Assembly: GCA_030606485.1 (NCBI GenBank)
Contig: JAUWGH010000007.1
Location: forward strand, 180,001-212,000
Reading direction: 5' to 3'
DNA: 32,000 nt
From: Promethearchaeota archaeon
GTDB taxonomy: Archaea; Asgardarchaeota; Lokiarchaeia; Sigyniarchaeales; SOKP01
In this document: positions 1-18,877 of the stretch, piece by piece
Position numbering within the stretch: the first letter of the stretch is position 1
Layout of the letters: each line of letters begins with the position of its first letter
Made by a program: the position numbers and the translations under genes
Notes under the pieces: generated by a model
What the model was told of the DNA's origin: nothing
What the model saw: the letters and a program-made list of their open reading frames with translations, nothing else
Databases searched by the model: none

Positions 1-911
1 TCTAACTCAATATATTTCCATGCATTTTTTATATTTTCTTGCCATTTAACTAATCCAACCTCAGAAAGTGTGTTAAATCTTTTTTGAATCCCTAAATATT
101 CTTGAATTGGTCTGCGTTTCGAGGGATCCAAATATTTTTTACTCGGCTTAGATAATTTAAATTCACCATTTTCAACTTCATATAATATCCAAAATCCAGT
201 TTCCACCGCCAGTTTTCCCATTTTTACGGTATCTTCAGAAGCAAAACCCCAACCGGGTGGACAAGGAGCAAGAATATGAATATATCTAAATCCTTTAATT
301 TCTTTCGCTTTCTTAAATTTCTCATAAAGATCAATTGGATAAGAAATACAACATGTAGCTACATATGGGACGTTATGAGCCGCCACTATTGCAGGTAAAT
401 TCTTTTTAAATCGTTGTTTTCCAAAGGGTGTAGTTGTAGTTCTAGCCCCATGAGGTGTAGACGAGCTTCTTTGAATACCGGTATTCATATAAGCCTCATT
501 ATCGTAACAAACATAAAGGATATCGGAGTTTCTTTCTGCTGCACCACTTAAACCTTGAATTCCAATATCCGTTGTACCACCATCTCCCGCGAAGACTAAG
601 GAAGTCATTTTCCCCCACACTTTTCCAGGAAATTTATATTCTTTCGCTTTAAAGGCTGCAGATATACCAGATGCTGCTGCTGCAGCTGCAGCAAATGCCA
701 TATTAATAAAGGGGAAATTTGGAGCGGTTTTAGGCCATAATCCAACAACCACATTAAGGCAGCTTGCCGGAGCAACCAGAGCTGTCTTAGGACCGAGCGC
801 TTTCATCGCCCATCTAAGTGCCAACTCCAATCCACAACCAGCGCATGTTGAGTTCCCTGGTAGGAATAATTCTTCTGCAGTTGTTTCTTGTAATTCTTTT
901 AAACTAACCAT
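1..911 (-). CDS. porB: 2-oxoacid (pyruvate/2-ketoisovalerate):ferredoxin oxidoreductase beta subunit, partial (runs off left edge; absent from ORF track)
   Basis: Manual translation from ATG at 911: MVSLKELQ...GNSTCAGCG...FAGDGGTTDIGIQGLSG...YDNEAYMNTG...APCPPGW. This gives the TPP-binding GDG..N motif and the Fe-S cysteines. SD GGAGGTGA at 926-919. No stop before base 1. Confidence 0.93.
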   Translation of the reverse strand, partial: MVSLKELQETTAEELFLPGNSTCAGCGLELALRWAMKALGPKTALVAPASCLNVVVGLWPKTAPNFPFINMAFAAAAAAASGISAAFKAKEYKFPGKVWGKMTSLVFAGDGGTTDIGIQGLSGAAERNSDILYVCYDNEAYMNTGIQRSSSTPHGARTTTTPFGKQRFKKNLPAIVAAHNVPYVATCCISYPIDLYEKFKKAKEIKGFRYIHILAPCPPGWGFASEDTVKMGKLAVETGFWILYEVENGEFKLSKPSKKYLDPSKRRPIQEYLGIQKRFNTLSEVGLVKWQENIKNAWKYIEL

Positions 912-913
912 TA

Positions 914-2149
914 TTATTTCACCTCCAAAACGCCATCCCAGAGAGTTCCATGTATCATGTCCTTTGGAAGCTCACCTGTCTCTTTTAATTTCATTAATAT
1001 CTTGAATTCTTCCTTCTGTTGTTCTACTGAAACTTCTCTCCCTCCAATCCCAGTAATAATTGGTAAAATAATTGTATCAATTCCTGTATTATGAAGTGCA
1101 CTTTTGCATTCAGAACTAACTGCACCTCCAGTTGGGGATCCAAAAGCTGTATCTCGATCAACTACTCCAATAACATCAACCCTTTTTGCTATATTTATAA
1201 TTTCATCTATAGGAAATGGTCTAAAATGTCTTAATTTTACTGAACCCACTTTATAACCCTCCTGTCTTAGTTCATCTACAGCCTGCTCTGCCTGTAGTGC
1301 AAGCCCTCCAATATTAATCAATACTACATCCGCATCATCCATCTTATATTCTTGAATAAGTCCATTTCCATAACTTCTTCCAAAGATCTTTTCAAATTCT
1401 AAAGCAACTTGTTTAATTATATGCGTCGATTTCATCATTTCATCATGAATTTTCATTCTGAATTCATAATAAAAACCAGAAGGCATAATTAGATTTCCAT
1501 GCATCATTGGTCTTTCTGGATCAATAAAAATATGTGGCCAGCCTTTTTCATCGGGTAAAGGCGGCAGAAACTTTTCTAATTTATCATCAGGCTCAATAAT
1601 TACCGGTTTAGATGTGTGTGATAATACGAAACCACCATATGCGATAAACATTGGGAGTAAAACTTCCTCATTTTCACAAATTTTATAGGCCATTAAAACA
1701 CTATCATAAATCTCTTGATGTGAAGATGCGAATGAAATTAACCATCCAGCGTCTCTCTGTGAAATCACATCAGTAAAATCCGCCCAAATATTCCACGGAG
1801 GAGCGATTCCACGCGATGCAATAGTCATTACTATAGGTAATCTCGCACCAGCTGCCCAATGAACCATCTCACTCATATATAAAAGACCTTGTCCTGCTGT
1901 TGCGGAAAAAGTTCTAGTTCCAGCAATGCTTGCACCTACTAGAGCAGCCATAACTGAGTGTTCCGATTCAACTTTAATATATTGGGCTGGCATATCTCCA
2001 GAATCGACAAAATCTGAAAGTTTTTCAACAACAGTTGTTTGCGGAGTAATTGGATACGCACTTATAACTTGAACCTTTGCTGAGCGTGCTGCATAAGCTG
2101 CTGCAACATTGCCTGAAATAAACTTAATTTCCTGTTCTTTTTGACTCAT
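914..2149 (-). CDS. porA: 2-oxoacid:ferredoxin oxidoreductase alpha subunit
   Basis: SGNVAAAYAA, AYPITPQT, VESEHSVM, TAGQGL, LRHFRPFP and GIGGRE motifs; operon context. Confidence 0.93.
   Translation of the reverse strand: MSQKEQEIKFISGNVAAAYAARSAKVQVISAYPITPQTTVVEKLSDFVDSGDMPAQYIKVESEHSVMAALVGASIAGTRTFSATAGQGLLYMSEMVHWAAGARLPIVMTIASRGIAPPWNIWADFTDVISQRDAGWLISFASSHQEIYDSVLMAYKICENEEVLLPMFIAYGGFVLSHTSKPVIIEPDDKLEKFLPPLPDEKGWPHIFIDPERPMMHGNLIMPSGFYYEFRMKIHDEMMKSTHIIKQVALEFEKIFGRSYGNGLIQEYKMDDADVVLINIGGLALQAEQAVDELRQEGYKVGSVKLRHFRPFPIDEIINIAKRVDVIGVVDRDTAFGSPTGGAVSSECKSALHNTGIDTIILPIITGIGGREVSVEQQKEEFKILMKLKETGELPKDMIHGTLWDGVLEVK
919..926 (-). promoter_or_regulatory. Shine-Dalgarno site (GGAGGTGA) for porB
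   Basis: Perfect archaeal SD 7 nt upstream of the ATG at 911, embedded in the porA 3' end. Confidence 0.8.
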
Positions 2150-2478
2150 TATTCAAATTCACTCTCCCTTTTCATTTCTATTGCTTTAACAGGACATTCT
2201 TTTGCACAAATCCCACAGCCTTTACAATATACATAATCTATTGTGAAAAATCCATCCTCACTTTTTTGAATCACTCCTTCAGGACAGTACATCCAGCAAA
2301 ATCCACATTTAGTGCATTTTTTTTTGTCTATTACAGGTCTAAAAACCCTCCAATCTCCTGTCTCTCCCATACTTCCATAACAAGGAAATGATATTGGAAT
2401 TGGAGGTAATTCATTCCAATTTTTATAATTTTGAAGTTTAGGTCTTTTATCTTTACTTTCCGCTATTATTTTCCACAT
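2149..2478 (-). CDS. porD: 2-oxoacid:ferredoxin oxidoreductase delta subunit (2x[4Fe-4S])
   Basis: TGDWRVFRP followed by CTKCGFCWMYCP and CKGCGICAKECP ferredoxin motifs. Confidence 0.93.
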   Translation of the reverse strand: MWKIIAESKDKRPKLQNYKNWNELPPIPISFPCYGSMGETGDWRVFRPVIDKKKCTKCGFCWMYCPEGVIQKSEDGFFTIDYVYCKGCGICAKECPVKAIEMKRESEFE

Positions 2479-2480
2479 AA

Positions 2481-3059
2481 TTAAATCATCTCCTTAACCG
2501 TTTCAAATGCATCTCTGGCTGTTTTCATATTTTTCTCAGCCCTTGAACCAAATTTTTTTTTAATAACTTTTTCCATAATATCTAGGCCATAAAACCCAGA
2601 TATCTTAGCAAATGCTCCCAACATTGGGATGTTTAAAATTGGAAACCCCTCTATTGCTAACCCATACTTTAATGAAATCCCAGTAGCATCGACTATATAA
2701 ATTTTAACACTCTTTTGCAAATTATTATTAAAATCAATTTTATGATTGCTATTAATGATTAAAATCACTCCCTCTTTAATGGTAGCAAACACTCTGGGAA
2801 TCTTTAATAGAGTAGTATCAAAAATAAGCATAAAATCCGGGTCTGTTACACTACAATATGATCTAATTTGAGCATCCCTAGATATTTTAGAAAAAGCTTG
2901 TATTGGAGCACCCCTTCGTTCAGCACCAATTATTGGTATAGCTATCGCATCTTTAAAGCCACATTCATATGCCATTTCCGCCAATAATTTTGAAGCGGTA
3001 ATTGCTGTTTGACCTCCCCGGCCATGAAATGCTATTTCAATAATTTTTTTCTCTATCAT
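2481..3059 (-). CDS. porG: 2-oxoacid:ferredoxin oxidoreductase gamma subunit
   Basis: HGRGGQ, GAERRGAP and NIPMLGA motifs; first gene of the operon. Confidence 0.9.
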   Translation of the reverse strand: MIEKKIIEIAFHGRGGQTAITASKLLAEMAYECGFKDAIAIPIIGAERRGAPIQAFSKISRDAQIRSYCSVTDPDFMLIFDTTLLKIPRVFATIKEGVILIINSNHKIDFNNNLQKSVKIYIVDATGISLKYGLAIEGFPILNIPMLGAFAKISGFYGLDIMEKVIKKKFGSRAEKNMKTARDAFETVKEMI

Positions 3060-3160
3060 TTTTCAATGCTCCTTTATAATATATAATTTTAAAGTGTTCA
3101 AAATATTTGTTTTTATTTTTAATAAAATATTTCATAATCAAATTATATTTATAATTATAT

Positions 3161-3715
3161 ATGGTAAAGAATAAAAAAGATGACTCTGGAGAAGATTTAG
3201 GTTTTAATTGGTTTGATTGTCCGATCTGTAAGAAAGGACGACTCGTTTTAAGTAAGCATATTCATGAACTTCCAGATGGAGATAAATATCTCATCATGAA
3301 ATTCGAATGTGATAAATGTGATTTTACGAAAAATGATCTTATTCCAGTAGAAACACCCATTAAGCCAGGTAAATTTATTTTAAATGTTAATGAGAAAGAA
3401 GACTTAAAATCAAAAGTTTTTAGGTCATCTTCAGGTGTATTAGAAATCCCTGAATTAGAAATGGAAATTGAGCCAGGTCCTGCAGCAGACTTTTATATTA
3501 CAAATATTGAGGGTGTATTATTTAGAATGAAAGATGCTGTTTCGTTTTTTAAAAAAGGTTTATCTGAAGAAAATCAAAAAGTGAACAAAATCCTTGAGAA
3601 TATAGATAGGGCCATTAATGGGGAATTTAAATTCACATTAATAATAACTGATGAATTAGGTGGGAGTTATATCGTGCCCTTTAATGAAAAGTCATTAAAA
3701 ATTGAATATTTTTAA
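3161..3715 (+). CDS. ZPR1-type zinc finger protein
   Basis: CPIC...CDKC zinc finger, VFRSSSG..EIPEL..EIEPGP, ITNIEGVL, ITDELGGSYI. Confidence 0.88.
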   Translation: MVKNKKDDSGEDLGFNWFDCPICKKGRLVLSKHIHELPDGDKYLIMKFECDKCDFTKNDLIPVETPIKPGKFILNVNEKEDLKSKVFRSSSGVLEIPELEMEIEPGPAADFYITNIEGVLFRMKDAVSFFKKGLSEENQKVNKILENIDRAINGEFKFTLIITDELGGSYIVPFNEKSLKIEYF

Positions 3716-3731
3716 AAAAATATTAAACTTT

Positions 3732-4907
3732 TTACTGTTTTGATTTATAGCGAACTTTAACTAATAAATCCCTTAATTCTATTTTATCACTATCTTTTGT
3801 TATATATTTTTTTCGAGCACCCTCTTCAAGAGGCATGGTTAGAACTTTATTCCCTTGAAGTGACACCATTTTACCAAAATCTTCTTTAATCACCTGTTTC
3901 ATGGCAGCTAAACCAAACCTTAATCCTAAAATTCGATCAAATGCATTGGGAGTTCCTGCTCTCATAGTATGTCCTAACACAACACTTCTACATTCAAAAT
4001 CCACACCGTTTTTCTTAAATTCTTCTTTTAAATCGTCTCGCAAGTTTAATTCTTGAACTAATATTTTACTTATTTTTAACGATAATAATAAAGGATTGCC
4101 ATATTCATCTTTGGGTAAATTATCTATTGTTTTTTTTGTAATTGTCTTGAAATCTCTTAATAATGATTCTTTACTTGGATAAGCTCCTTCAGAACAAGCA
4201 ATAAGATGATATTTATAGCCACTTCTTACTCTATTTTTAAGCACATCGATTACATCCGATTCTAAATCAAAAGGAGTTTCAGGAATTAAAATAATATCAG
4301 CACCAGTTGAAATTCCACTATACATAGTTAAAAAACCAGCATCTCTTCCCATAACTTCGACAATAAACACTCTCTGGTGGGATCTGGCAGTGGTTGTAAG
4401 ATTGTCCATTACATTTGAAGCTAGTTGAACTGCACTCCAGAATCCAAATGTATAATGTGTTCCTAATAAATCATTATCTATTGTTTTAGGAACTCCAATA
4501 ATTTTTGCATTGGAATATTTAAACATTGCAGCAGCAACTCCTAATGTATCATCACCACCTATAGCAATTAGAGCATCGATATCTAAATCCTTAAATTTCG
4601 ATGCCATCTCAGTAGCAATTTTTTTTGCTAATTCTTCTTTTTCCTTCTGGTCCGATAGTTTATGTACTGCTTTATAAGGATTATATCTTGATGTATAAAT
4701 TAATGTTCCTCCAATAGTGTGTAAATCGTCTAACTCAGCAATATTAAGAGGTTCCTTAATATTTTCCATAAAACCCTTCCATCCCTTTTTAATTCCAATA
4801 CATTCAATTCCAGAATCAAATGCTTTCAGTAATATTCCATATAAAACGGAATTGAGGCCAGGGGCGTCTCCTCCACCCGTCAGAATTCCAACTTTTTTTA
4901 TAGCCAT
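3732..4907 (-). CDS. pfp: 6-phosphofructokinase (PfkA superfamily) with PPi-dependent signature
   Basis: TGGGDAPGLN, IGGDDT, PKTIDND, EVMGR and LGHTMRAG motifs. Confidence 0.88.
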   Translation of the reverse strand: MAIKKVGILTGGGDAPGLNSVLYGILLKAFDSGIECIGIKKGWKGFMENIKEPLNIAELDDLHTIGGTLIYTSRYNPYKAVHKLSDQKEKEELAKKIATEMASKFKDLDIDALIAIGGDDTLGVAAAMFKYSNAKIIGVPKTIDNDLLGTHYTFGFWSAVQLASNVMDNLTTTARSHQRVFIVEVMGRDAGFLTMYSGISTGADIILIPETPFDLESDVIDVLKNRVRSGYKYHLIACSEGAYPSKESLLRDFKTITKKTIDNLPKDEYGNPLLLSLKISKILVQELNLRDDLKEEFKKNGVDFECRSVVLGHTMRAGTPNAFDRILGLRFGLAAMKQVIKEDFGKMVSLQGNKVLTMPLEEGARKKYITKDSDKIELRDLLVKVRYKSKQ

Positions 4908-4990
4908 AAAATTTCACATTAAGTAATTATAATTGAAATATATTTTTTTATTAGAGTAATTTAAATGTAAATTTATTTTTATTTAATAAT

Positions 4991-5662
4991 ATGTATTACT
5001 TCAAAGTATCACTGTTTAATACTTGGAATCCACGAGATGTAAAAATATCATCAGACGTGAATTTACTTTCTTTGAAGTATATACTTGGAAAATTTCCAAA
5101 GATCGAAAACAAGTTTTTTGAGGATCTTAAGGAAAACATTAAGAAAAAACCGAATTATTTTTCACAGGATTCCATAAAAAGAGTTGTTGGACCAGAAAAG
5201 GAAGAATATGATATATCTAATTGGTTTTTTTTATGGGGTTTTGACTTTAAGAAACGTGGGTATCAATTGTTAATTCAAATTGATAAAGAAGGAAAGGGAA
5301 TATTAGCAGCGATTGGGCCAATGGAATTGGCATCCTTTTTCGATCGGATGAAATTGAATAGTATATTACCAACTCTATCTTTAATAAATTCAACAGATAA
5401 GATGAAATTTGTAGTTTTTTTAAAACCTAGAGGAGATTTAATTATTAAAGGATTAGAGATGAAAGGCATTGAAAAGGGAAAAATCCAGCAAGTAATAGAT
5501 TATTGGAAAACTTTAAAAAATGTTGATGGTCAATGGTTTCCAACATTTAAACCTAGATGTCCTATATGCGGTAGTTTTATAGAAGGTTTGCACAGTTATG
5601 AGATTGGTTTTGCTCCATTAATTTGTCCTAAATGCGGATATGAGATTAAAAAAAAGAGTTAA
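4991..5662 (+). CDS. hypothetical protein with C-terminal zinc ribbon
   Basis: 223-aa ORF filling the gap between neighbours; CPICG...CPKCG at the C-terminus. Confidence 0.75.
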   Translation: MYYFKVSLFNTWNPRDVKISSDVNLLSLKYILGKFPKIENKFFEDLKENIKKKPNYFSQDSIKRVVGPEKEEYDISNWFFLWGFDFKKRGYQLLIQIDKEGKGILAAIGPMELASFFDRMKLNSILPTLSLINSTDKMKFVVFLKPRGDLIIKGLEMKGIEKGKIQQVIDYWKTLKNVDGQWFPTFKPRCPICGSFIEGLHSYEIGFAPLICPKCGYEIKKKS

Positions 5663-5683
5663 TATTTTTCAAACTCTTAAATT

Positions 5684-6418
5684 CTATTCTCTTTGAATTT
5701 TATTCCTTAATTCAAGAAGTATATCTGGATAATTGGTATAAATCGCATCCACGTTTTTACCATTATAATTCATTTTTAAAAATCTTTTCATAAAAAATTG
5801 AGTATCTACACCCCAAACATAAAAACTAAATCCAGCATTTTTGATTTGCTTAAAAAAGTTCAATTTAGCTTGACTATTTCTGATATTGAAACCGTAGATT
5901 TTTAATTTATTCATCTTATTGAATTTTAAATCTTTTTCCGCAATAATTGGGTGTCTTTCTGATATTGTATAAATTAATTTGGCTTCTTTCTCCATTTTTC
6001 TTATTTTAGAAAAAAAGTAAAAATTATTTCCTACTAACTCTACTTTCTCAAGTATATTATATTCTCTGGCAAGTCTAATTATTTTAAAACCAACATTATT
6101 GTCTTTTAAATCGATACTATACTTAATATTTTTACTTTTAAATACATCAAATACTTCACCTAGGGTAGGAATCTTTTTATTTTCTTCAAGGCGAATTTCT
6201 TTAATTTCTCTTAAGGTCAATTTATTTATCTCAATCTTTTTACCATCTTTTTCCACAATATAATCGTGAAAGAGAACTATTTGTCCATCTTTAGAAAGAT
6301 GAGCATCCGTTTCAATTCCATCAACTCCCATCTCAATGGCTTTTCGAAAGGAATCGATTGTATTTTCAACAGAATGAATCCCTGCCCCTCGATGTCCCCA
6401 TATAAAAGTTCGATTCAA
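5684..6418 (-). CDS. glycerophosphodiester phosphodiesterase (GlpQ/UgpQ family)
   Basis: GHRGA, ENTIDSF, GIETDAHLSKDGQIVLFHD, IDLK, YVWGVD, IYTNYP; TTG start. Confidence 0.9.
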   Translation of the reverse strand: MNRTFIWGHRGAGIHSVENTIDSFRKAIEMGVDGIETDAHLSKDGQIVLFHDYIVEKDGKKIEINKLTLREIKEIRLEENKKIPTLGEVFDVFKSKNIKYSIDLKDNNVGFKIIRLAREYNILEKVELVGNNFYFFSKIRKMEKEAKLIYTISERHPIIAEKDLKFNKMNKLKIYGFNIRNSQAKLNFFKQIKNAGFSFYVWGVDTQFFMKRFLKMNYNGKNVDAIYTNYPDILLELRNKIQRE

Positions 6419-6573
6419 TAATAAAACACTTAAAAAATTAATAATAATTTCTAATTTTAAGTTTGAATGATTAAATTATTTAAAAATCTTATAGGAATCT
6501 TAAAAATTTTTTTATATTATAAGATTTATACAAATAATATTCATAAAACAACAATATTTAGAACTTAAGAATT

Positions 6574-8124
6574 ATGTATGTTGCTGCTTTAGATTTAGGA
6601 ACATCTGGATGCCGAACAATTATTTTTGATATTACAGGTTCCATAGTTTCAAGCCATTATGAAGAATGGGAGAGCTATTTCCCATCACCATTAATGGTTG
6701 AGCAATCGGCAGATCAATGGTATGAAAAATTAAAAATTACAATAAAAAATGCAATTGAAAAGGTTTCAATAAACCCACAAGAAATTGTAAGTATTTCTAT
6801 TACCAATCAGCGTGAAACCATAGTTCCCATTGATTCAGAAGGAAATTCTTTATATAATGCAATAGTGTGGCAAGATAGAAGAACAACAAATGAATGTGAG
6901 ATAATTAAAAAAAAGGTTGGAATAGATAAAATCTATAAAATAACTGGTTTGACAATAGATCCATATTTTTCTGCCTCAAAAATTCTATGGTTTAAGAACA
7001 ATAAACAAGAAATTTATAATAAAACACATAAATTTCTATTGGTTCATGATTATATTTTATATAAATTAACCGGACAGTTTTATACTGATTTTTCTAATGC
7101 TTCAAGAACGATGCTATTTGACGTAAATACCTTAAAATGGTCAGATGAGATTGCATCCTTACTTGGAATTGATCTTGATAAAATGCCTATACCTGTAGAA
7201 AGCGGTATTGATATAGGTGAATTAACAGCAAATGATACTAGTTTTGATAAAAAAACGCTCGTAATTACCGGAGCAGGCGATCAACAAGCAGCTGCATTAG
7301 GTGTTGGAGTAGTTGAACCTGGGCGAATTAAATGTACTACCGGAACTGGCTCTTTTATTCTTGCTTATTTAGAAGAACCTCAATTTGACACCAAAAAGCG
7401 AGTATTGTGCAGTTGTCACGCAGTTCCAGGTTCATGGGTTCAAGAATCAAGTATATTTACTACAGGAGCTGTCTTTCGTTGGGCTAGAGATCAAATTGGT
7501 TTTGAAGAGCGTGAAAAAACTGAATCTGGAAAAAATACATATGATTTAATGACAAAAATGGCAGAAGGAAGTCCTGTAGGGGCAAATGGGTTAATAATGA
7601 TTCCTCACTTTACAGGAGCAGGAGCTCCTTACTGGAATCCTTATGCTAGAGGGATCTTTTTTGGATTAACATTAGGGCATACGCGGGCTGATATTTATCG
7701 TGCAATTATGGAAAGTGTTTCCTTTGAAGTTAAGAAGAACATTCAAGTTTTTAATGAACTGAACTTTTCATCAAAAGAATTAAGAGTTACTGGTGGTGGT
7801 TCCCGATCGAATTTATGGAATAGTATTATGGCCGATATTGTTGGAATACCAGTATTTAGACCAGAATTGGAGGAGGCTACGGCTTTGGGTGCAGCAATAC
7901 TAGCTGCTTCTGGTGCTGGAATTTTTCCTGATATTGCTAAAGCAGCAAATGATATTTGTAAAATTAGTGATAAATGGTATCCAAATAAAGAAAATAATCG
8001 AATATACGAATCAATATTTAATTTTTATAATATTTTTTATAGTAATTTGGAGAATTCCAATATATATCGAAAATTTTTCGATTTAAATTTATATAAAAAA
8101 AAAGAGGAAGAAAATCAAGAATAA
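6574..8124 (+). CDS. glpK: FGGY-family carbohydrate kinase, glycerol kinase-like
   Basis: DLGTSGCR, TNQRET, NAIVWQDRRT, IDPYFSASK, NASRTMLF, AGDQQAA, GTGSF, FTGAGAPYW; the polyol-contacting R/E, W, Y, D/Q and F positions of GlpK are retained. Confidence 0.7.
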   Translation: MYVAALDLGTSGCRTIIFDITGSIVSSHYEEWESYFPSPLMVEQSADQWYEKLKITIKNAIEKVSINPQEIVSISITNQRETIVPIDSEGNSLYNAIVWQDRRTTNECEIIKKKVGIDKIYKITGLTIDPYFSASKILWFKNNKQEIYNKTHKFLLVHDYILYKLTGQFYTDFSNASRTMLFDVNTLKWSDEIASLLGIDLDKMPIPVESGIDIGELTANDTSFDKKTLVITGAGDQQAAALGVGVVEPGRIKCTTGTGSFILAYLEEPQFDTKKRVLCSCHAVPGSWVQESSIFTTGAVFRWARDQIGFEEREKTESGKNTYDLMTKMAEGSPVGANGLIMIPHFTGAGAPYWNPYARGIFFGLTLGHTRADIYRAIMESVSFEVKKNIQVFNELNFSSKELRVTGGGSRSNLWNSIMADIVGIPVFRPELEEATALGAAILAASGAGIFPDIAKAANDICKISDKWYPNKENNRIYESIFNFYNIFYSNLENSNIYRKFFDLNLYKKKEEENQE

Positions 8125-8193
8125 AATATAATGTTTAATCAAATAATTATAAATAATTATTTCATTATTTTTCTGTTAGATATTTAATTAAAT

Positions 8194-8832
8194 ATGGTTA
8201 AGATTAAAATGGAAGTATCAAATAACGAAAAAGTTCAAGATTCAGAAGAAATTGATAAATATATAAAGCGTCAAATAACCATAGGGAAAATATTTTTCGT
8301 ATCTCTAACAATATCACTAATAATATGCATTGGTGGTGCAGTATATACTTTAGCAGATATATTTGTACCAACTGGAAAACTGCAAGAATTCCTAGCAATG
8401 GGGTTTGGATTGCAAATCGTAATTCTAGGTGGATTATTCGCAGGTTTGTTTTTTTTATTAGTATCATTTTATGCATTATATAAAAAGGGCAATAAAAAAA
8501 TTCTTAAAATTTTATTTAAAGAAAAAAGACAGATATTAGACAAATATAGTGGAAAAGTGGGCGTAAAAATTATTGCATTTGGTGCTCTAATAAGTATTTG
8601 CGTTGTTATTGTTGGTATTCTTTATAGTCTTCTTGAAATGCTTCTTCTTAGTAGTAGTGAATACCAAGGTTTAATAGCCTTATTAAGCTCACTTTCCCAA
8701 GGACAACTAATTTTATTGATTGGATTCACTTCTTTGTCATTGATTGCGCTTATTATATTATTTAAATACCTTATTGACCATGGATATTACCTTATTCTTA
8801 AGTTATTATATACTATCGAAGAAAATGAATAG
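8194..8832 (+). CDS. hypothetical integral membrane protein (about 4 TM, internal duplication)
   Basis: Four long hydrophobic segments arranged as two similar hairpins. Confidence 0.75.
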   Translation: MVKIKMEVSNNEKVQDSEEIDKYIKRQITIGKIFFVSLTISLIICIGGAVYTLADIFVPTGKLQEFLAMGFGLQIVILGGLFAGLFFLLVSFYALYKKGNKKILKILFKEKRQILDKYSGKVGVKIIAFGALISICVVIVGILYSLLEMLLLSSSEYQGLIALLSSLSQGQLILLIGFTSLSLIALIILFKYLIDHGYYLILKLLYTIEENE

Positions 8833-8950
8833 ATTTTTTATATTTTTTTTTAAAAACTATTTTCTGTGATCTTAAAAACTTTCACACTATTACTATTTAA
8901 ATAAATCTCATTGTAATATGTTTTTAAAAAAAGAGATTTAAAGATTTAAC

Positions 8951-10483
8951 TTGTTAAATAAAATTGGAACAGTATTTTCTATACCCCAGATGGATTTACC
9001 AAATGTATCAAAGTACGCTTTTGTTTTATCTAAGGGGAAGCAAAATTCTGTTGTTAAAAAGGGTTTATTCTGCATAACTCAAACTTCTGAGGGGTGGCTG
9101 ATTGGAATTGTTGAAAAAATAATTTTAGAAAATGAGTATTTTTCAAATGTTCAAACTGTAAAGGACTATAATGAAAATAATCTAAATGTAATTAAAGGAA
9201 TGTTTCCATCTGAAAATTTTGAATACGGAATTGCTATAATTAAGTGTCTGGGAATCATTTCCTTTAAGGATGAGACTAAAACAAAAATATCCAACATTAA
9301 ACGGATGTTATTTCCTGCTAAACCGGGAGCTGAAGTTCATCTGTGCAGTGAGGAAATTCTGAGTGAATTCTTAGGATTCAATAATAAAAATGGTTTAAAT
9401 TTAGGTAAAGTTAAAATTGCAGATTTTGATGCAAAAATCGATATCAATAGACTTTTGAATAAACATTTTGCAACTTTAGCAATTTCGGGAGCTGGTAAAA
9501 GTTATTTAACATCTGTTCTGTTAGAAGAGTTGCTTTTAAGGGATAAAGAGAGCGGGGTTCCAGCAATTGTCTTAATTGACGTCCATGGTGAATATGTTTA
9601 TTTTCATAATATTAAGAAATTCAAAAATCGAGTAAGCATTCAAGATTCTTCTTATTTTCAGATTTCTGTGCCAAAATTATTTGCTAAATCTTTTAAAAAG
9701 TATCAAGAAAATATTTCAGCTGCCCAAGTAAGAGAATTAAATAAAATTTTAACAAAAATTAGAAATCAAAAACAAAGTAAATCATATACAATCAAAGACA
9801 TTATTGATAATATTGAAAACGATGAAGAGATTAATAAAAGCACTCAACAAGCCTTAATTGGATGGTTAGACGAATTAGATTACCTACAACTCTTTGGCTC
9901 CCAAGAAAATCCTCCAATTAAGCATTTATTAAAAACTGGAAATTTAACAATCTTCAATTTACAATCTGAGACCTCTATTCGCAAAAAACAGATTATAGTT
10001 GATTACATTGCAAGCCAACTCTTTTATTTCCGAAAGAAAAATAAAATTCCTCCTTTTCTGTTAATTATAGAAGAATCTCATCAATTTTGTCCTGAAGCGG
10101 CACAATCAAAGGCAATTTCTAAATGGATAATTGAAACGATCGCTCGAGAAGGAAGGAAATTTATGGCATGTTTGAATTTGATCTCCCAGCGTCCAAAACG
10201 ATTGAGTTCTACTGCTTTATCCCAATGTAATTCTAAATTAATATTGAAAATCTCTAATCCCTATGATTTAAAACATATTCAGGAATCAGATGAATCCATT
10301 ACAAAATCATACACTGATATGATTTCCAGCTTAGCAGTCGGAGAATTATTGATTGTTGGAAATGCAGTAAATTATCCTGCATTTATTGAAGTACGCCAAC
10401 GTATTTGCGATCAAACAAAATCGCGCTCATTATTAGAAATGTGTAGTCACTGGTGGAATATTCATGAGAAAGAGAGAAATTAA
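8951..10483 (+). CDS. HerA/DUF87-family P-loop ATPase
   Basis: N-terminal HAS-barrel-like region, LLNKHFATLAISGAGKS (Walker A), IDVHGEY, IIEESHQFCP, AREGRKF, ISQRPKRLSSTALSQCN; TTG start. Confidence 0.88.
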   Translation: MLNKIGTVFSIPQMDLPNVSKYAFVLSKGKQNSVVKKGLFCITQTSEGWLIGIVEKIILENEYFSNVQTVKDYNENNLNVIKGMFPSENFEYGIAIIKCLGIISFKDETKTKISNIKRMLFPAKPGAEVHLCSEEILSEFLGFNNKNGLNLGKVKIADFDAKIDINRLLNKHFATLAISGAGKSYLTSVLLEELLLRDKESGVPAIVLIDVHGEYVYFHNIKKFKNRVSIQDSSYFQISVPKLFAKSFKKYQENISAAQVRELNKILTKIRNQKQSKSYTIKDIIDNIENDEEINKSTQQALIGWLDELDYLQLFGSQENPPIKHLLKTGNLTIFNLQSETSIRKKQIIVDYIASQLFYFRKKNKIPPFLLIIEESHQFCPEAAQSKAISKWIIETIAREGRKFMACLNLISQRPKRLSSTALSQCNSKLILKISNPYDLKHIQESDESITKSYTDMISSLAVGELLIVGNAVNYPAFIEVRQRICDQTKSRSLLEMCSHWWNIHEKERN

Positions 10484-15979: not shown

Positions 15980-16402
15980 TTAAAAATCTTTAAAAAGCAT
16001 TTCTTTAAGTTCTTCGGGAATCCCTTCCCTATTTCGTAAATCAATAGCAATAAAATTTAACATATCATAAGGTGCCTGCTTTCTTTCCCAAACAATTCTA
16101 ATCCAGTTCTCTATCCATTCCAATTTTACATAGGGATCCTTTAACATCGCTCTAAATGCCGTAATCTTTTTTACTTCTGTTAATTTATCTTCAAGCATGC
16201 ATGCTACTGCCCACATATTAATAATTGCTTCTAATTCGGAATCTATAGGAACTAAATTAAAAGCTTTTGTAAAGAATTTTTTTTTGTATTCTATAGATTC
16301 ATTACTCATTAGAAGCGCTCGACCTAAATCCATTGCAGTCTTATTTTTTGGTGATTTCTCAAGTGTTGTAAGAAGATTTTGAATTCTATTGGATTTACTC
16401 AT
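15980..16402 (-). CDS. hypothetical alpha-helical protein
   Basis: ORF track gives 16456; the internal ATG at 16402 (MSKSNRIQ) looks more plausible because the extra 18 codons resemble translated A/T-rich intergenic DNA. No recognised motif. Confidence 0.65.
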   Translation of the reverse strand: MSKSNRIQNLLTTLEKSPKNKTAMDLGRALLMSNESIEYKKKFFTKAFNLVPIDSELEAIINMWAVACMLEDKLTEVKKITAFRAMLKDPYVKLEWIENWIRIVWERKQAPYDMLNFIAIDLRNREGIPEELKEMLFKDF

Positions 16403-16625
16403 AAAATATCTATAGTGATATCGCTTTTTAATTTTTTTTATAAAATAGATTCGCATCTATTAAATTTACATAATAAATTTAAAGTGAATATGTAGAAAGT
16501 ATTAAATTCTCTTTTGTTAATTCTCATTTATTTAAATTTATTTTTTTTTCTTTCCTTTATTCTTTAGTAAAAAATTATGTTTAGGAAAAAAATAAACATA
16601 ATAATATATTTATTCTAAAATAATA

Positions 16626-16649
16626 TTTAAAATAAAATTTAAAATAAAA
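16626..16649 (+). promoter_or_regulatory. tandem TTTAAAATAAAA x2, candidate TATA box(es) for the hairpin/srp54 transcript
   Basis: Exact 12-bp direct repeat; the first copy lies at TATA-box distance from the hairpin 5' end. Confidence 0.4.
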
Positions 16650-16651
16650 TA

Positions 16652-16709
16652 ATCCGGTTGTGGCGCAACGAAGTGCTGGACTCCCACTGCTGAAATGTCG
16701 CAACCCGAT
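16652..16709 (+). ncRNA. structured RNA element (kink-turn hairpin) upstream of srp54; 5' leader or small RNA
   Basis: 33/58 GC next to 1 GC in the preceding 51 nt; GGTTGTG/CGCAACC stem; GA + AGTG/CACT + 3-nt bulge GCT + GA fits the K-turn consensus. Confidence 0.6.
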
Positions 16710-16739
16710 AAAAGAATAGTTTAATTTGTGCGATAAGAT

Positions 16740-18101
16740 ATGGTTTTGGAGGCTCTTGGAAAATCTTTAGATAGTGCGATAAGGAAGATTCGTCGACTCC
16801 CTAAGGTCGATAAGGATGCAATCGATGCTTTAATTCAAGAGCTGCAAAGGGCTTTACTTTCTGCTGATGTAAAAGTGGAAATCGTTTTTGAAGCAACGGA
16901 AAGAATCAAAAAGGAAGCAATGGACACGAAGTTAAGTAGTTCTATAAGGAGAAGGGATTTCATAATTAAAATCGTCCACGATGAGTTAGTCAACACTCTT
17001 GGAGGGAAATCAACTCCTATACGTATTAAGCCCAATAAGCTAAATATAATTCTCCTGGTTGGCATTCAGGGAAGTGGAAAAACCACCACAGTAGGAAAGC
17101 TTGCAAATTACTATAAAAGCAAAGGATACAAAATTGCTGTAGTTGGCGGAGATAATTTCCGGCCTGGAGCTTTTGAACAACTTCAACAGCTTTGCGATCC
17201 AATTAATGTAAAAGTATATGGAAATCCAAATGAAAAAAATACTGTAAAGCTTGTTGTAAAACAAACGAAATTGGCTTTAAAACAAGATTATAACATAATA
17301 ATTATTGATACAGCAGGACGCCATAAGGAAGAAAAGGAACTTATGAAAGAAATTGAAAAAATCGCAGCGGTAGTTAAACCGGATGAAGTTATTTTAGTTA
17401 TTGATGGAACACTTGGACAACAAGCATATAATCAAGCTCTGGAATTCTCTAAGGCAACTCGAGTAGGTTCTATAATAGTCACAAAATTAGATGGAACAGC
17501 AAAAGGCGGAGGGGTATTATCAGCAGTTGCTGCTACAAACGCTCCTATAAAATTTATTGGAATAGGAGAAAAAATTGATCAATTTGAACTATTTGAGCCC
17601 ACTCGATTTGCCGGGACACTACTTGGAATACCTGATTTAGAGGGTTTAGTTCAAAAAGTTCAAGACGCAATGGCTGAACCAGATCCAGAAATGGTTAAGC
17701 GAATGATGCGAGGGAAATTTACATTAGAAGATCTTTATATCCAGCTAAAAGCGATAAAAAAGATGGGCAGATTGGGAAAACTTTTAGGAATGATGGGTAT
17801 AGGTAATATTCCTGATGAGGCAAAGGAGATGGCCGAGCAAAATTTAGATCAATGGGAAGTTGTATTAAACTCGATGACGAAAGAAGAGAAAGAGACCCCC
17901 AAAATCATCAAAAAGTCAAGAAAACGCAGGATTGCAATTGGAAGTGGCACCTCATATACAACCATTAATAAAATGCTAGATCAATATAATCAAATGAAAT
18001 CAATGATGAAAAAATTTATGAAACTAAGAAAAAAAAGCAAACGCGGAGGCTTACCTGGCTTACCTCCTGGTTTTGATTTGCCTTCTGAATTTAAATTATG
18101 A
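16740..18101 (+). CDS. srp54: signal recognition particle protein SRP54
   Basis: [37 protein letters not shown] domain SMT...[11 protein letters not shown]. Confidence 0.97.
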
Positions 18102-18135
18102 TTTTTCTACGCATCTTCAAACTTTTTATTTTAAT
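18102..18135 (+). terminator. T-rich tract after srp54, candidate archaeal oligo-U terminator
   Basis: TTTTT...CTTTTTATTTTT immediately after the stop codon. Confidence 0.35.
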
Positions 18136-18226
18136 TCACAGTACAACAAAAGTTAAATTGTTTAATATCAATTTATTAAGTTTTATAAAAAATTATTAAA
18201 TTATTATTCTTAATTAACAACATAAC

Positions 18227-18877
18227 TTGCCGAATTTTTTAATTATAACTAAAACTATTCCAGACTATTCAAAACATGATATAGATTTTGGAAATACTCC
18301 TAAAATTGTTATACAACTTTGCTTATGCTTGAAAGAAGCATTTTTCTTAGCGTATAAAATTAGAAAATACGTAAATTTTTATATTTATATTGAAGAGAGT
18401 GAAATTTTAATTAAATTTGAAGGAAAAACTTTAAGATATCTTGGTCCAGATGAGCGGTCTCAATCTCTTCTCTTAGAAAAGGCATTAAAAATGAGTTGTT
18501 ATAAAGATTCTATTTCTCCTATGATGTTCATAAAATCTACGCCTGGTATCTTTATTAAGAAGGTTAGATTTAAAGATTTTATCAAAAATCAAGAAGATTT
18601 TCAAAATATAAGTATTATAAATTCATTTCAGGAAGAGCAACTAAAAGATATCAAAGTTTTATTTAATACAACGAGGATTGAAGATAATATAAATTCAAAA
18701 TTTATATGTTTTTTAAATTATGATCCAAGAAAATTTAATGAATATTTACCCTATTTAAAGTGTTTAACAAAAATCAATATATTAGAAGGATTAAGTAAAA
18801 AAATTGAAAATCTGCTTTGTTCCGATAAAATTTTATATATTAACCATTATTTCGATAAATTAAACTATGATACTTAA
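18227..18877 (+). CDS. TrmY-like (tRNA pseudouridine-54 N1-methyltransferase, SPOUT) protein, divergent
   Basis: LCLCLKEAFFLAYKIRKYVNFY, IKFEG..LRYLGPDERS..LLLEKAL and STPGIFIKK match TrmY blocks as I recall them; C-terminal SAM knot degenerate; TTG start. Confidence 0.7.
   Translation: MPNFLIITKTIPDYSKHDIDFGNTPKIVIQLCLCLKEAFFLAYKIRKYVNFYIYIEESEILIKFEGKTLRYLGPDERSQSLLLEKALKMSCYKDSISPMMFIKSTPGIFIKKVRFKDFIKNQEDFQNISIINSFQEEQLKDIKVLFNTTRIEDNINSKFICFLNYDPRKFNEYLPYLKCLTKINILEGLSKKIENLLCSDKILYINHYFDKLNYDT

Follow-up and report, generated by a model that had tools for sequence, protein, structure and literature searches.

The window analysed here is a 32,000-nt stretch of a metagenome-assembled genome from the Promethearchaeia (Asgard archaea), labelled G000. 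An open reading frame on its forward strand (16740–18101) encodes SRP54, as identified by the Pfam domains SRP54_N, SRP54 GTPase and SRP_SPB. Upstream of the ATG start codon at 16740, and ending 30 nt before it, lies a GC-rich hairpin on the same strand (16652–16709). By direct count it contains 33 G/C in 58 nt and is preceded by 51 nt (16601–16651) with a single G/C; given a G+C content of 13% elsewhere in the intergenic region and 29% in the genome, it constitutes an exceptional GC island, and it is present as a single copy in G000. A sequence-only reading of this stretch had described the hairpin as a standard kink-turn (K-turn) in the srp54 leader that might serve as an L7Ae-bound cis-regulator or else represent a separate small RNA. 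Its counts and coordinates, including the distance to the ATG, are all correct; its interpretation is the subject of what follows.

Fold and putative kink-turn geometry of the leader hairpin

The + strand of the hairpin folds with a minimum free energy (MFE) of -19.9 kcal/mol (z -2.63; 2 of 200 shuffles equally good), whereas the - strand is no better than its shuffles (z -0.07), which bears out the earlier assignment to the + strand. In the MFE structure ten continuous pairs between 16656–16665 and 16696–16705 form the outer stem, and AGUG pairs with UGCU (16688–91) rather than with CACU. The motifs from which a K-turn had been read, namely CGA (16669–71), AGTG (16672–75), CACT (16685–88), GCT (16689–91) and GAA (16692–94), are all present in their places. 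The non-bulged strand (16670–16675, +) would consist of G-A (16670–71) followed by the 5′ strand of the C-stem, AGUG, and the bulged strand (16685–16693, +) of the C-stem CACU (16685–88), the bulge GCU (16689–91) and G-A (16692–93). AGUG and CACU make four Watson-Crick pairs followed by a 3-nt bulge ending in U, and G16692·A16671 and A16693·G16670 are correctly placed in the sequence for tandem trans sugar-Hoogsteen G·A/A·G pairs. The sequence does meet the consensus of a standard K-turn; the MFE structure, however, adopts the AGUG/UGCU register. The K-turn register (-17.2 kcal/mol) is 2.7 kcal/mol costlier before any credit is given to the G·A pairs, and in these models it is accessible but not the default fold of the hairpin.

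In a whole-genome scan with a K-turn descriptor the srp54 hairpin ranked first among 11 intergenic K-turn-like hairpins. Two equally strong sites were found in coding DNA by the same scan, and the K-turn motif alone is therefore not beyond chance. The second intergenic candidate, at C10:355606, was rejected as an intron-containing tRNA (G000:C10:355583–355686; L095 984–1087; Rfam 52.8 bits). The intron of this tRNA sits at a non-canonical position and passes for a K-turn hairpin when a simple descriptor is used for scanning. A K-turn-like motif in the leader of the G002 type was likewise put down to chance, as it is not kept in L096–L098.

L7Ae-responsive K-turn operators reside in the leaders of archaeal mRNAs including l7ae, nop5 and others (Daume et al. 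2017, PMC5539422), and the K-turn in helix 5 of the Sulfolobus SRP RNA is also bound by L7Ae (PMC5539422). Like the mRNA operators, the srp54 element is a hairpin in the 5′ upstream region that fits a standard K-turn, in a genome that encodes L7Ae. Unlike them, it lacks conservation in the leaders of orthologues and is situated 30 nt from the start codon and not over the ribosome-binding site; as a target of L7Ae it is a candidate. It also lacks the placement of an L7Ae operator: it ends at 16709, and the 3′ leader segment common to relatives (16725–16739) lies outside it. The likeness to SRP RNA helix 5 is limited to a thematic link between L7Ae and SRP. Unlike the Sulfolobus case, the SRP RNA of G000 (C2:437741–438064) has no significant similarity to the hairpin, and mimicry or duplication of SRP RNA or RNase P RNA was rejected on best local matches of 7 nt. 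Judged by its geometry, the hairpin may possibly be bound by L7Ae.

The l7ae leader itself (G000:C5, about 41184–41240, -) reads CCUAUGAUU...UUUGAAGGAGG; by eye, it could form a K-turn with a GGAGG Shine-Dalgarno sequence in its C-stem, as in published L7Ae autoregulation.

Rfam contains no family that matches the hairpin at gathering score, all other hits being noise at E>0.5, in agreement with the earlier statement that no described element was known here. ARAGORN detected no tRNA in the hairpin. An H/ACA or C/D sRNA was rejected, there being neither a pseudouridylation pocket with an ACA box nor a C box, and so was the relic of a transposase gene: the match in G032 (84% over 37 nt) and that in G099 fall into unrelated coding genes and are chance. 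Viral contigs returned a single, unrelated pattern match. Among the public runs listed, no RNA run contained the stretch, and three metatranscriptome runs gave no contig on it.

Other structured RNAs of the same genome deserve brief mention. The SRP RNA and the RNase P RNA (C2:432392–432717) of G000 are below the Rfam gathering thresholds (75 and 60 bits) and AT-rich, and scanning for GC islands consequently misses genuine structured RNAs there. Four intergenic GC-rich islands (G000:C1:6082–6134, C3:26026–26087, C10:236715–236772 and C12:29703–29761) share the motif GGTGGGACTCC..CTACATAGA..GGGGTATAGAGG..GAGGGCGAAA and are candidates for a repeated element or a small RNA family of this genome.

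Distribution and variation in srp54 leaders

Sequence searches and searches with a covariance model made from the hairpin (CM R1) were run against 60, 100 and 150 related genomes, and further carriers were sought by pattern scans and by look-ups via the SRP54 protein, which added close metagenome relatives only. CM R1 matched in 3 of the roughly 200 genomes of the class that were searched. The hairpin was found only in G000, G001 and G003, which belong to one genus, and in their close metagenome relatives, always upstream of srp54. SRP54 is present in 58 of 61 genomes; the hairpin was not found upstream of its gene in G002, G004 and five further genus-level contigs (L096–L100), nor in 25 upstream regions of srp54 from other genera. 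The SRP54 of the hairpin-less G002 is 90% identical. Conservation upstream of srp54 in relatives, the lack of which the sequence-only reading had itself named as a ground for refutation, does not extend beyond one sub-genus lineage.

Alignments of the leaders delimit what is specific to the carriers. An upstream block (16527–16611, +) is common to the hairpin-less members of the genus and nearly identical in leaders of the G002 type; it is likely to be the ancestral srp54 promoter region. The last 15 nt of the leader (16725–16739, +) are again common to hairpin-less relatives. Between the two, carriers have about 113 nt where the hairpin-less genus members have about 36 nt of different sequence. 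The lineage-specific segment opens with an AT-rich stretch found in carriers only (16612–16651, +), which includes two TTTAAAAT boxes (16627–34 and 16638–45). From their sequence, these boxes are a possible TATA-like promoter, in which case the start would fall near 16653–57; an attempt to read promoters from tRNA upstream regions was abandoned, the DNA being too AT-rich to decide.

The gene upstream of srp54 also differs among close relatives. In G000 it is a 158-aa open reading frame on the opposite strand without a Pfam match (15980–16456, -), in G001 and G003 a membrane-like gene on the + strand, and in the hairpin-less relatives a 96-aa gene of the ABM family.

Genomes that have diverged by 27% at 4-fold sites show only 2–4 differences in the 58 nt of the hairpin. 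As a test of purifying selection this comparison was rejected: the low divergence reflects local ancestry and not constraint, because the srp54 locus is a mosaic in which coding sites are equally identical. Between about 16540 and 16870, coding sites included, G000 is 97–100% identical to G003 and 90–100% to G001. In a sliding comparison the identity to both falls to about 80% past 16870, in mid-gene, and from about 18000 onward G000 is 77–98% identical to G002, unlike G001 and G003. The mosaic (16540–18500) indicates recombination within the genus.

Among seven variants of the hairpin 7 of 58 sites are variable, about the same as in the flanking leader and gene, and the preceding 51 nt (16601–16651) contain one variable site. 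Four of five stem substitutions keep pairing, all of them transitions at or near G·U pairs, an outcome estimated to be expected by chance about 40% of the time. That no variable site falls within the K-turn core was discarded as an argument, since four of the variants had been fetched with a pattern requiring that core; the variant found through its SRP54 protein, and hence free of this bias, carries C16669T, a change at the tolerant position 3n. The substitutions in the carrier lineage are consistent with neutral drift. The hairpin as a conserved regulator of srp54 is not supported, and neither is the proposal of an L7Ae-operated cis-regulator, on four counts: no conservation outside one lineage, substitutions consistent with neutral drift, a start region left untouched and, as described below, the absence of a K-turn from homologous copies.

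A structured-RNA family and its probable copy in the srp54 leader

The hairpin model gave a weak match in an intergenic region of G115, a genome of genus g2, with a likeness that runs past the 3′ end of the model. The G115 sequence belongs to a ~130-nt element that exists in many copies, with 7 matches in G115 itself and matches in 19 of the 42 genomes of genus g2, both full-length and fragmentary. Eleven copies from three genera, with the window sequence left out, were aligned to give model R2. In its structure P0/P1 is the closing helix, P2 follows as the second helix, and P3 forms a long central hairpin capped by a cUUCGg-like apex. In the alignment 86.7% of cells are paired, compared to 24–45% when partners are slid, and 15 pairs change on both sides, a result reached by 0 of 500 shuffles. 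The family is a real structured RNA supported by covariation. It occurs in 34 of 135 genomes, covering six of the 13 genera of the taxonomic family, with 1–9 copies in each; fragments are frequent, many representing the 3′ end and some the 5′ end. No match to it was obtained in Rfam at E≤0.1, on which ground a group II intron or other ribozyme was rejected, and neither Rfam nor the literature searched holds a description of the family.

The route from the hairpin to this family is circular, because a forward match of E 0.002 per genome over about 200 genomes is at chance level, and homology was therefore re-tested in reverse with models that exclude the window sequence. On the window, CM R2 aligns end to end with 16643–16724 (+; 24 bits, E 8.8e-5), with the central 58 model positions replaced by 14 nt. 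Across the 3.75-Mb genome the same segment is the only match at E≤10 (E 0.0105). An nhmmer profile from 12 copies ranks it as the top genome-wide match (E 0.0031). A profile built only from copies of genera g3, g6, g7 and g11, which were found through the family and not through likeness to the window (g2 being left out), also puts it first genome-wide, with an E-value of 2.2e-4.

It could be argued that the resemblance is fortuitous, the hairpin being unrelated to the family (foreign DNA or a gene fragment, for example) and the match an artefact of searching many genomes. The chance-level forward match would fit such a scenario, as would the other weak matches (G032 and G099), which lie in coding DNA. 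We nevertheless give it little probability. Copies not selected for likeness to the window yield the better score; the likeness thus strengthens against the wider family, where an accidental resemblance to a single copy would be expected to weaken. The match comprises three collinear blocks and extends beyond the 3′ side of the sequence with which the family was found. GCTGAAATGTCGCAACC is identical at 17 of 17 positions to copy L172 of genus g11, and some copies of g3, g6, g7 and g11 share 17 of 17 nt with the GCUGAAAUGUCGCAACC of the window. Furthermore, the end of the R2 match at 16724 falls on the right-hand boundary of the segment specific to the carriers and adjoins the leader end common to hairpin-less relatives. 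From these comparisons, the window element is very probably homologous to the R2 family.

Homology would make the element an internally deleted copy of the structured-RNA repeat (16643–16724, +). It keeps the closing helix P1 (GGUUGUG/CACAACC) and both the 5′ and the 3′ conserved blocks, lacks the long central hairpin P3 and is degenerate at its 5′ end. The outer 10-bp stem corresponds to P1, which is supported by covariation, plus an extension. Its 5′ strand (16656–16665, +) matches the 5′ block of the family, CCAGGUUGUGCGCAAC, at about 15 of 16 positions with one indel each, and its 3′ strand (16696–16705, +; MFE fold and nhmmer) is contained in the most conserved 3′ block, GCUGAA(A/G)UGUC(G/A)CAACC. 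The inner stem of the MFE structure (16672–75 with 16688–91) is the counterpart of P2. The second option of the sequence-only reading, a small RNA, comes close in that the element descends from a family of small structured RNAs.

A mini-ORF of 9 codons (16696–16725), reading MSQPDKRIV, runs across the 3′ strand of the hairpin. Family copies read VSQPD(M/V)RIV, a recurrence that follows from the conservation of the 3′ block, and the mini-ORF is probably meaningless.

The comparison with the family also dissects the K-turn. On the bulged strand GCUGA/GCUGAA is inherited, being the most conserved single-stranded motif of the family. The GA and AGUG of the opposite strand have no family counterpart, and the family reads UCGCGC there. 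None of about 31 family copies combines the conserved GCUGAA strand with a 5′ GA and C-stem, and by this comparison the K-turn is lineage-specific and located at the deletion junction, either as a by-product or as a recent exaptation. Within the narrow carrier lineage the G·A pairs are intact throughout.

Retron association and the probable origin of the srp54 hairpin

In sister genera, members of the family are physically linked to retron genes. Three tandem RNA copies lie directly downstream of the retron genes in G021 and in G152, and two in G028, where the contig is incomplete. In both G021 and G152 PADLOC identifies SWIM_XIII (E 4e-180) and RT_XIII (E 5e-163 and 8e-160), and the SWIM zinc finger is detected by Pfam as well. 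A weaker match to WGR_XIII (E 1.4e-23) is found in G021 only, in a large upstream protein carrying LRRs; the G028 contig holds the RT and a partial SWIM gene only. The loci extend over L145 (G021:C170) 86–7767, L144 (G152:C21) 2947–9932 and L146 (G028:C423) about 1–2880, and judging from gene content the type XIII retron operons of G021 and G152 are apparently complete. No SWIM_XIII homologue was found in G032.

Two observations concern these loci. In G152 another conserved hairpin module, GGCUUUAAUGCU..GUUGCGCC..GUUGAG, stands ahead of every RNA unit, and BLAST coverage suggests that it is also present in G021 and G028. The retron RT of G152 (L144 3730–5194, -) is split into two overlapping ORFs with one TGA or frameshift inside the match, and is possibly a pseudogene.

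Type XIII retrons combine an RT of clade 10 with SWIM/DEDE and WGR/ARM proteins and have a distinctive RNA, examples being Mx162, Mx65, Sa163 and Ne144 (Mestre et al. 2020, PMC7736814). Since the adjoining genes match the partner proteins described for these retrons, the R2 family is probably the msr-msd-type RNA of a type XIII retron, an assignment made from adjacency and architecture. As expected of such an RNA, the family adjoins an operon matching WGR_XIII, SWIM_XIII and RT_XIII, and its closing long-range helix and covarying, sequence-variable long central hairpin recall the msr-msd layout. A retron msr-msd RNA templates the msDNA made by the RT from a branching G next to the a1/a2 helix, a role that is a prediction for this family. 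In contrast to classical retrons, the RNA is located downstream and not upstream of the RT, two or three units follow one another in tandem, orphans and fragments are scattered, and the host belongs to the Asgard archaea, for which the literature searched yielded no paper on retrons.

Full-length orphan copies are dispersed in G115, G117, G103 and G091 (L102–L105, L121), genomes in which no RT_XIII homologue was found; they possibly represent relics, integration-site duplicates or the outcome of RT-mediated dispersal. Such copies retain an intact, covarying structure, and this allows for a scenario in which the srp54 element is an independent small RNA gene: the AT-rich boxes at 16627–45 would serve as its promoter, and the product, a short hairpin RNA with its 5′ end near 16653, would be an orphan retron-type derivative with a function of its own. 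The boxes are positioned about 26 nt upstream of the hairpin base, the stretch around them is nearly invariant (1 of 51 sites), and the lineage-specific segment holds the AT-rich stretch together with the hairpin. Yet TATA-like strings are everywhere in DNA of 13% G+C, and the hairpin is followed by no oligo-T terminator, only by TTT and TTT, so that read-through into srp54 is to be expected. The element is moreover a single copy with a degenerate 5′ end and no central hairpin left, and we regard a dedicated small RNA gene as improbable.

On balance we favour the view, which we hold to be likely though by no means certain, that the hairpin is a decayed, solitary and internally deleted copy of a retron-associated structured RNA, and that it now forms a passive hairpin in the leader. 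In the ancestor of one sub-lineage, a copy of the ~130-nt RNA would have been inserted downstream of the srp54 promoter block and ahead of the start codon, taking the place of about 36 nt of the original leader. The element would still fold into a hairpin by virtue of the retained closing helix and both conserved end blocks. RT was not found in G000 by tblastn, and no SWIM_XIII homologue was found in five genomes of the genus (G000–G004). Unlike a working retron RNA, the window copy has lost the central, template-like hairpin and resides in a genome without a retron RT, and for these reasons could not act as one. The K-turn-like geometry would have arisen at the deletion junction, its bulged strand GCUGAA deriving from the 3′ motif of the family and the opposite GA and 4-bp C-stem being unique to the carrier lineage. 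At present the element would be a stable 5′-leader hairpin that stays clear of the start region and exerts little or no control dedicated to srp54. This account builds on the observed homology, distribution, structure and absence of an RT; that the hairpin is transcribed within the srp54 leader and exerts no regulation is what we infer from them.

Several points speak against this account. The homology scores are moderate (21–25 bits), and what first led to the family was a weak match (E 0.002 per genome) of a model derived from the hairpin itself. The G·A positions are intact in every variant seen and the outer stem is still strong. The invariant AT-rich stretch upstream could be a dedicated promoter. 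Finally, the identity as a retron RNA is by adjacency, with the RNA 3′ of the RT and orphans where no RT was found.

Relics of MITE-like elements offer a further comparison. As with these, the presence or absence of the window element is polymorphic between close relatives, its terminal complementarity forms a hairpin, and the family has multiple full and fragmentary copies. Unlike them, neither a target-site duplication nor a link to a transposase is seen for the window element, and the family helices covary with G·U on one strand, as in RNA, and are associated with an RT operon.

A clean K-turn consensus with a 5′ GA and a perfect 4-bp C-stem is unlikely to arise by accident (1e-3 to 1e-2, a rough estimate), and exaptation was therefore kept as a live rival, although we think it unlikely. 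According to this reading the relic was recruited as an L7Ae-binding K-turn that tunes translation or stability of the srp54 mRNA to the availability of L7Ae, in the manner of the K-turns that L7Ae binds in other archaeal mRNAs and in helix 5 of SRP RNA. The components are in place: the 4-bp Watson-Crick C-stem, the 3-nt bulge ending in U and the tandem G·A/A·G in the sequence, a K-turn register only 2.7 kcal/mol above the MFE before the G·A pairs are counted, the strongest intergenic K-turn hairpin of the genome, and an L7Ae gene (G000:C5, about 40817–41183) whose Sulfolobus counterpart binds mRNA-leader K-turns as well as SRP RNA (PMC5539422). The GA dinucleotides are unchanged in all variants, one of which alters only the tolerant 3n position, but invariance of the core is uninformative in variants fetched by a pattern and thus selected for an intact core. 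Nor is there conservation beyond one sub-genus lineage, or any excess of it within: divergence is low across the whole recombination tract, in which the hairpin varies like its neighbours. The 3′ end of the hairpin, 30 nt from the AUG, leaves the start region uncovered, and the homologous family copies are without a K-turn.

Had the hairpin been a new switch by which L7Ae controls SRP54 in Asgard archaea, it would have been notable; the evidence points instead to a relic that is young and confined to one lineage. It is conceivable, if something of a long shot, that the family is a retron-derived RNA able to spread or persist independently in Asgard archaea, as its orphans and fragments in genomes that yielded no RT suggest. 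The window copy would then be a footprint of that spread, later exapted when the deletion junction gave rise to a functional K-turn through which L7Ae controls the srp54 mRNA of one young lineage; if true, this would be a regulatory RNA element born from the RNA of a defence system. The lead worth following is the parent family, with its type XIII retron operons in the Promethearchaeia, its tandem ~130-nt RNAs and its orphan copies. It provides a candidate for a retron RNA of archaea and may exemplify how copies of such an RNA disperse in genomes.
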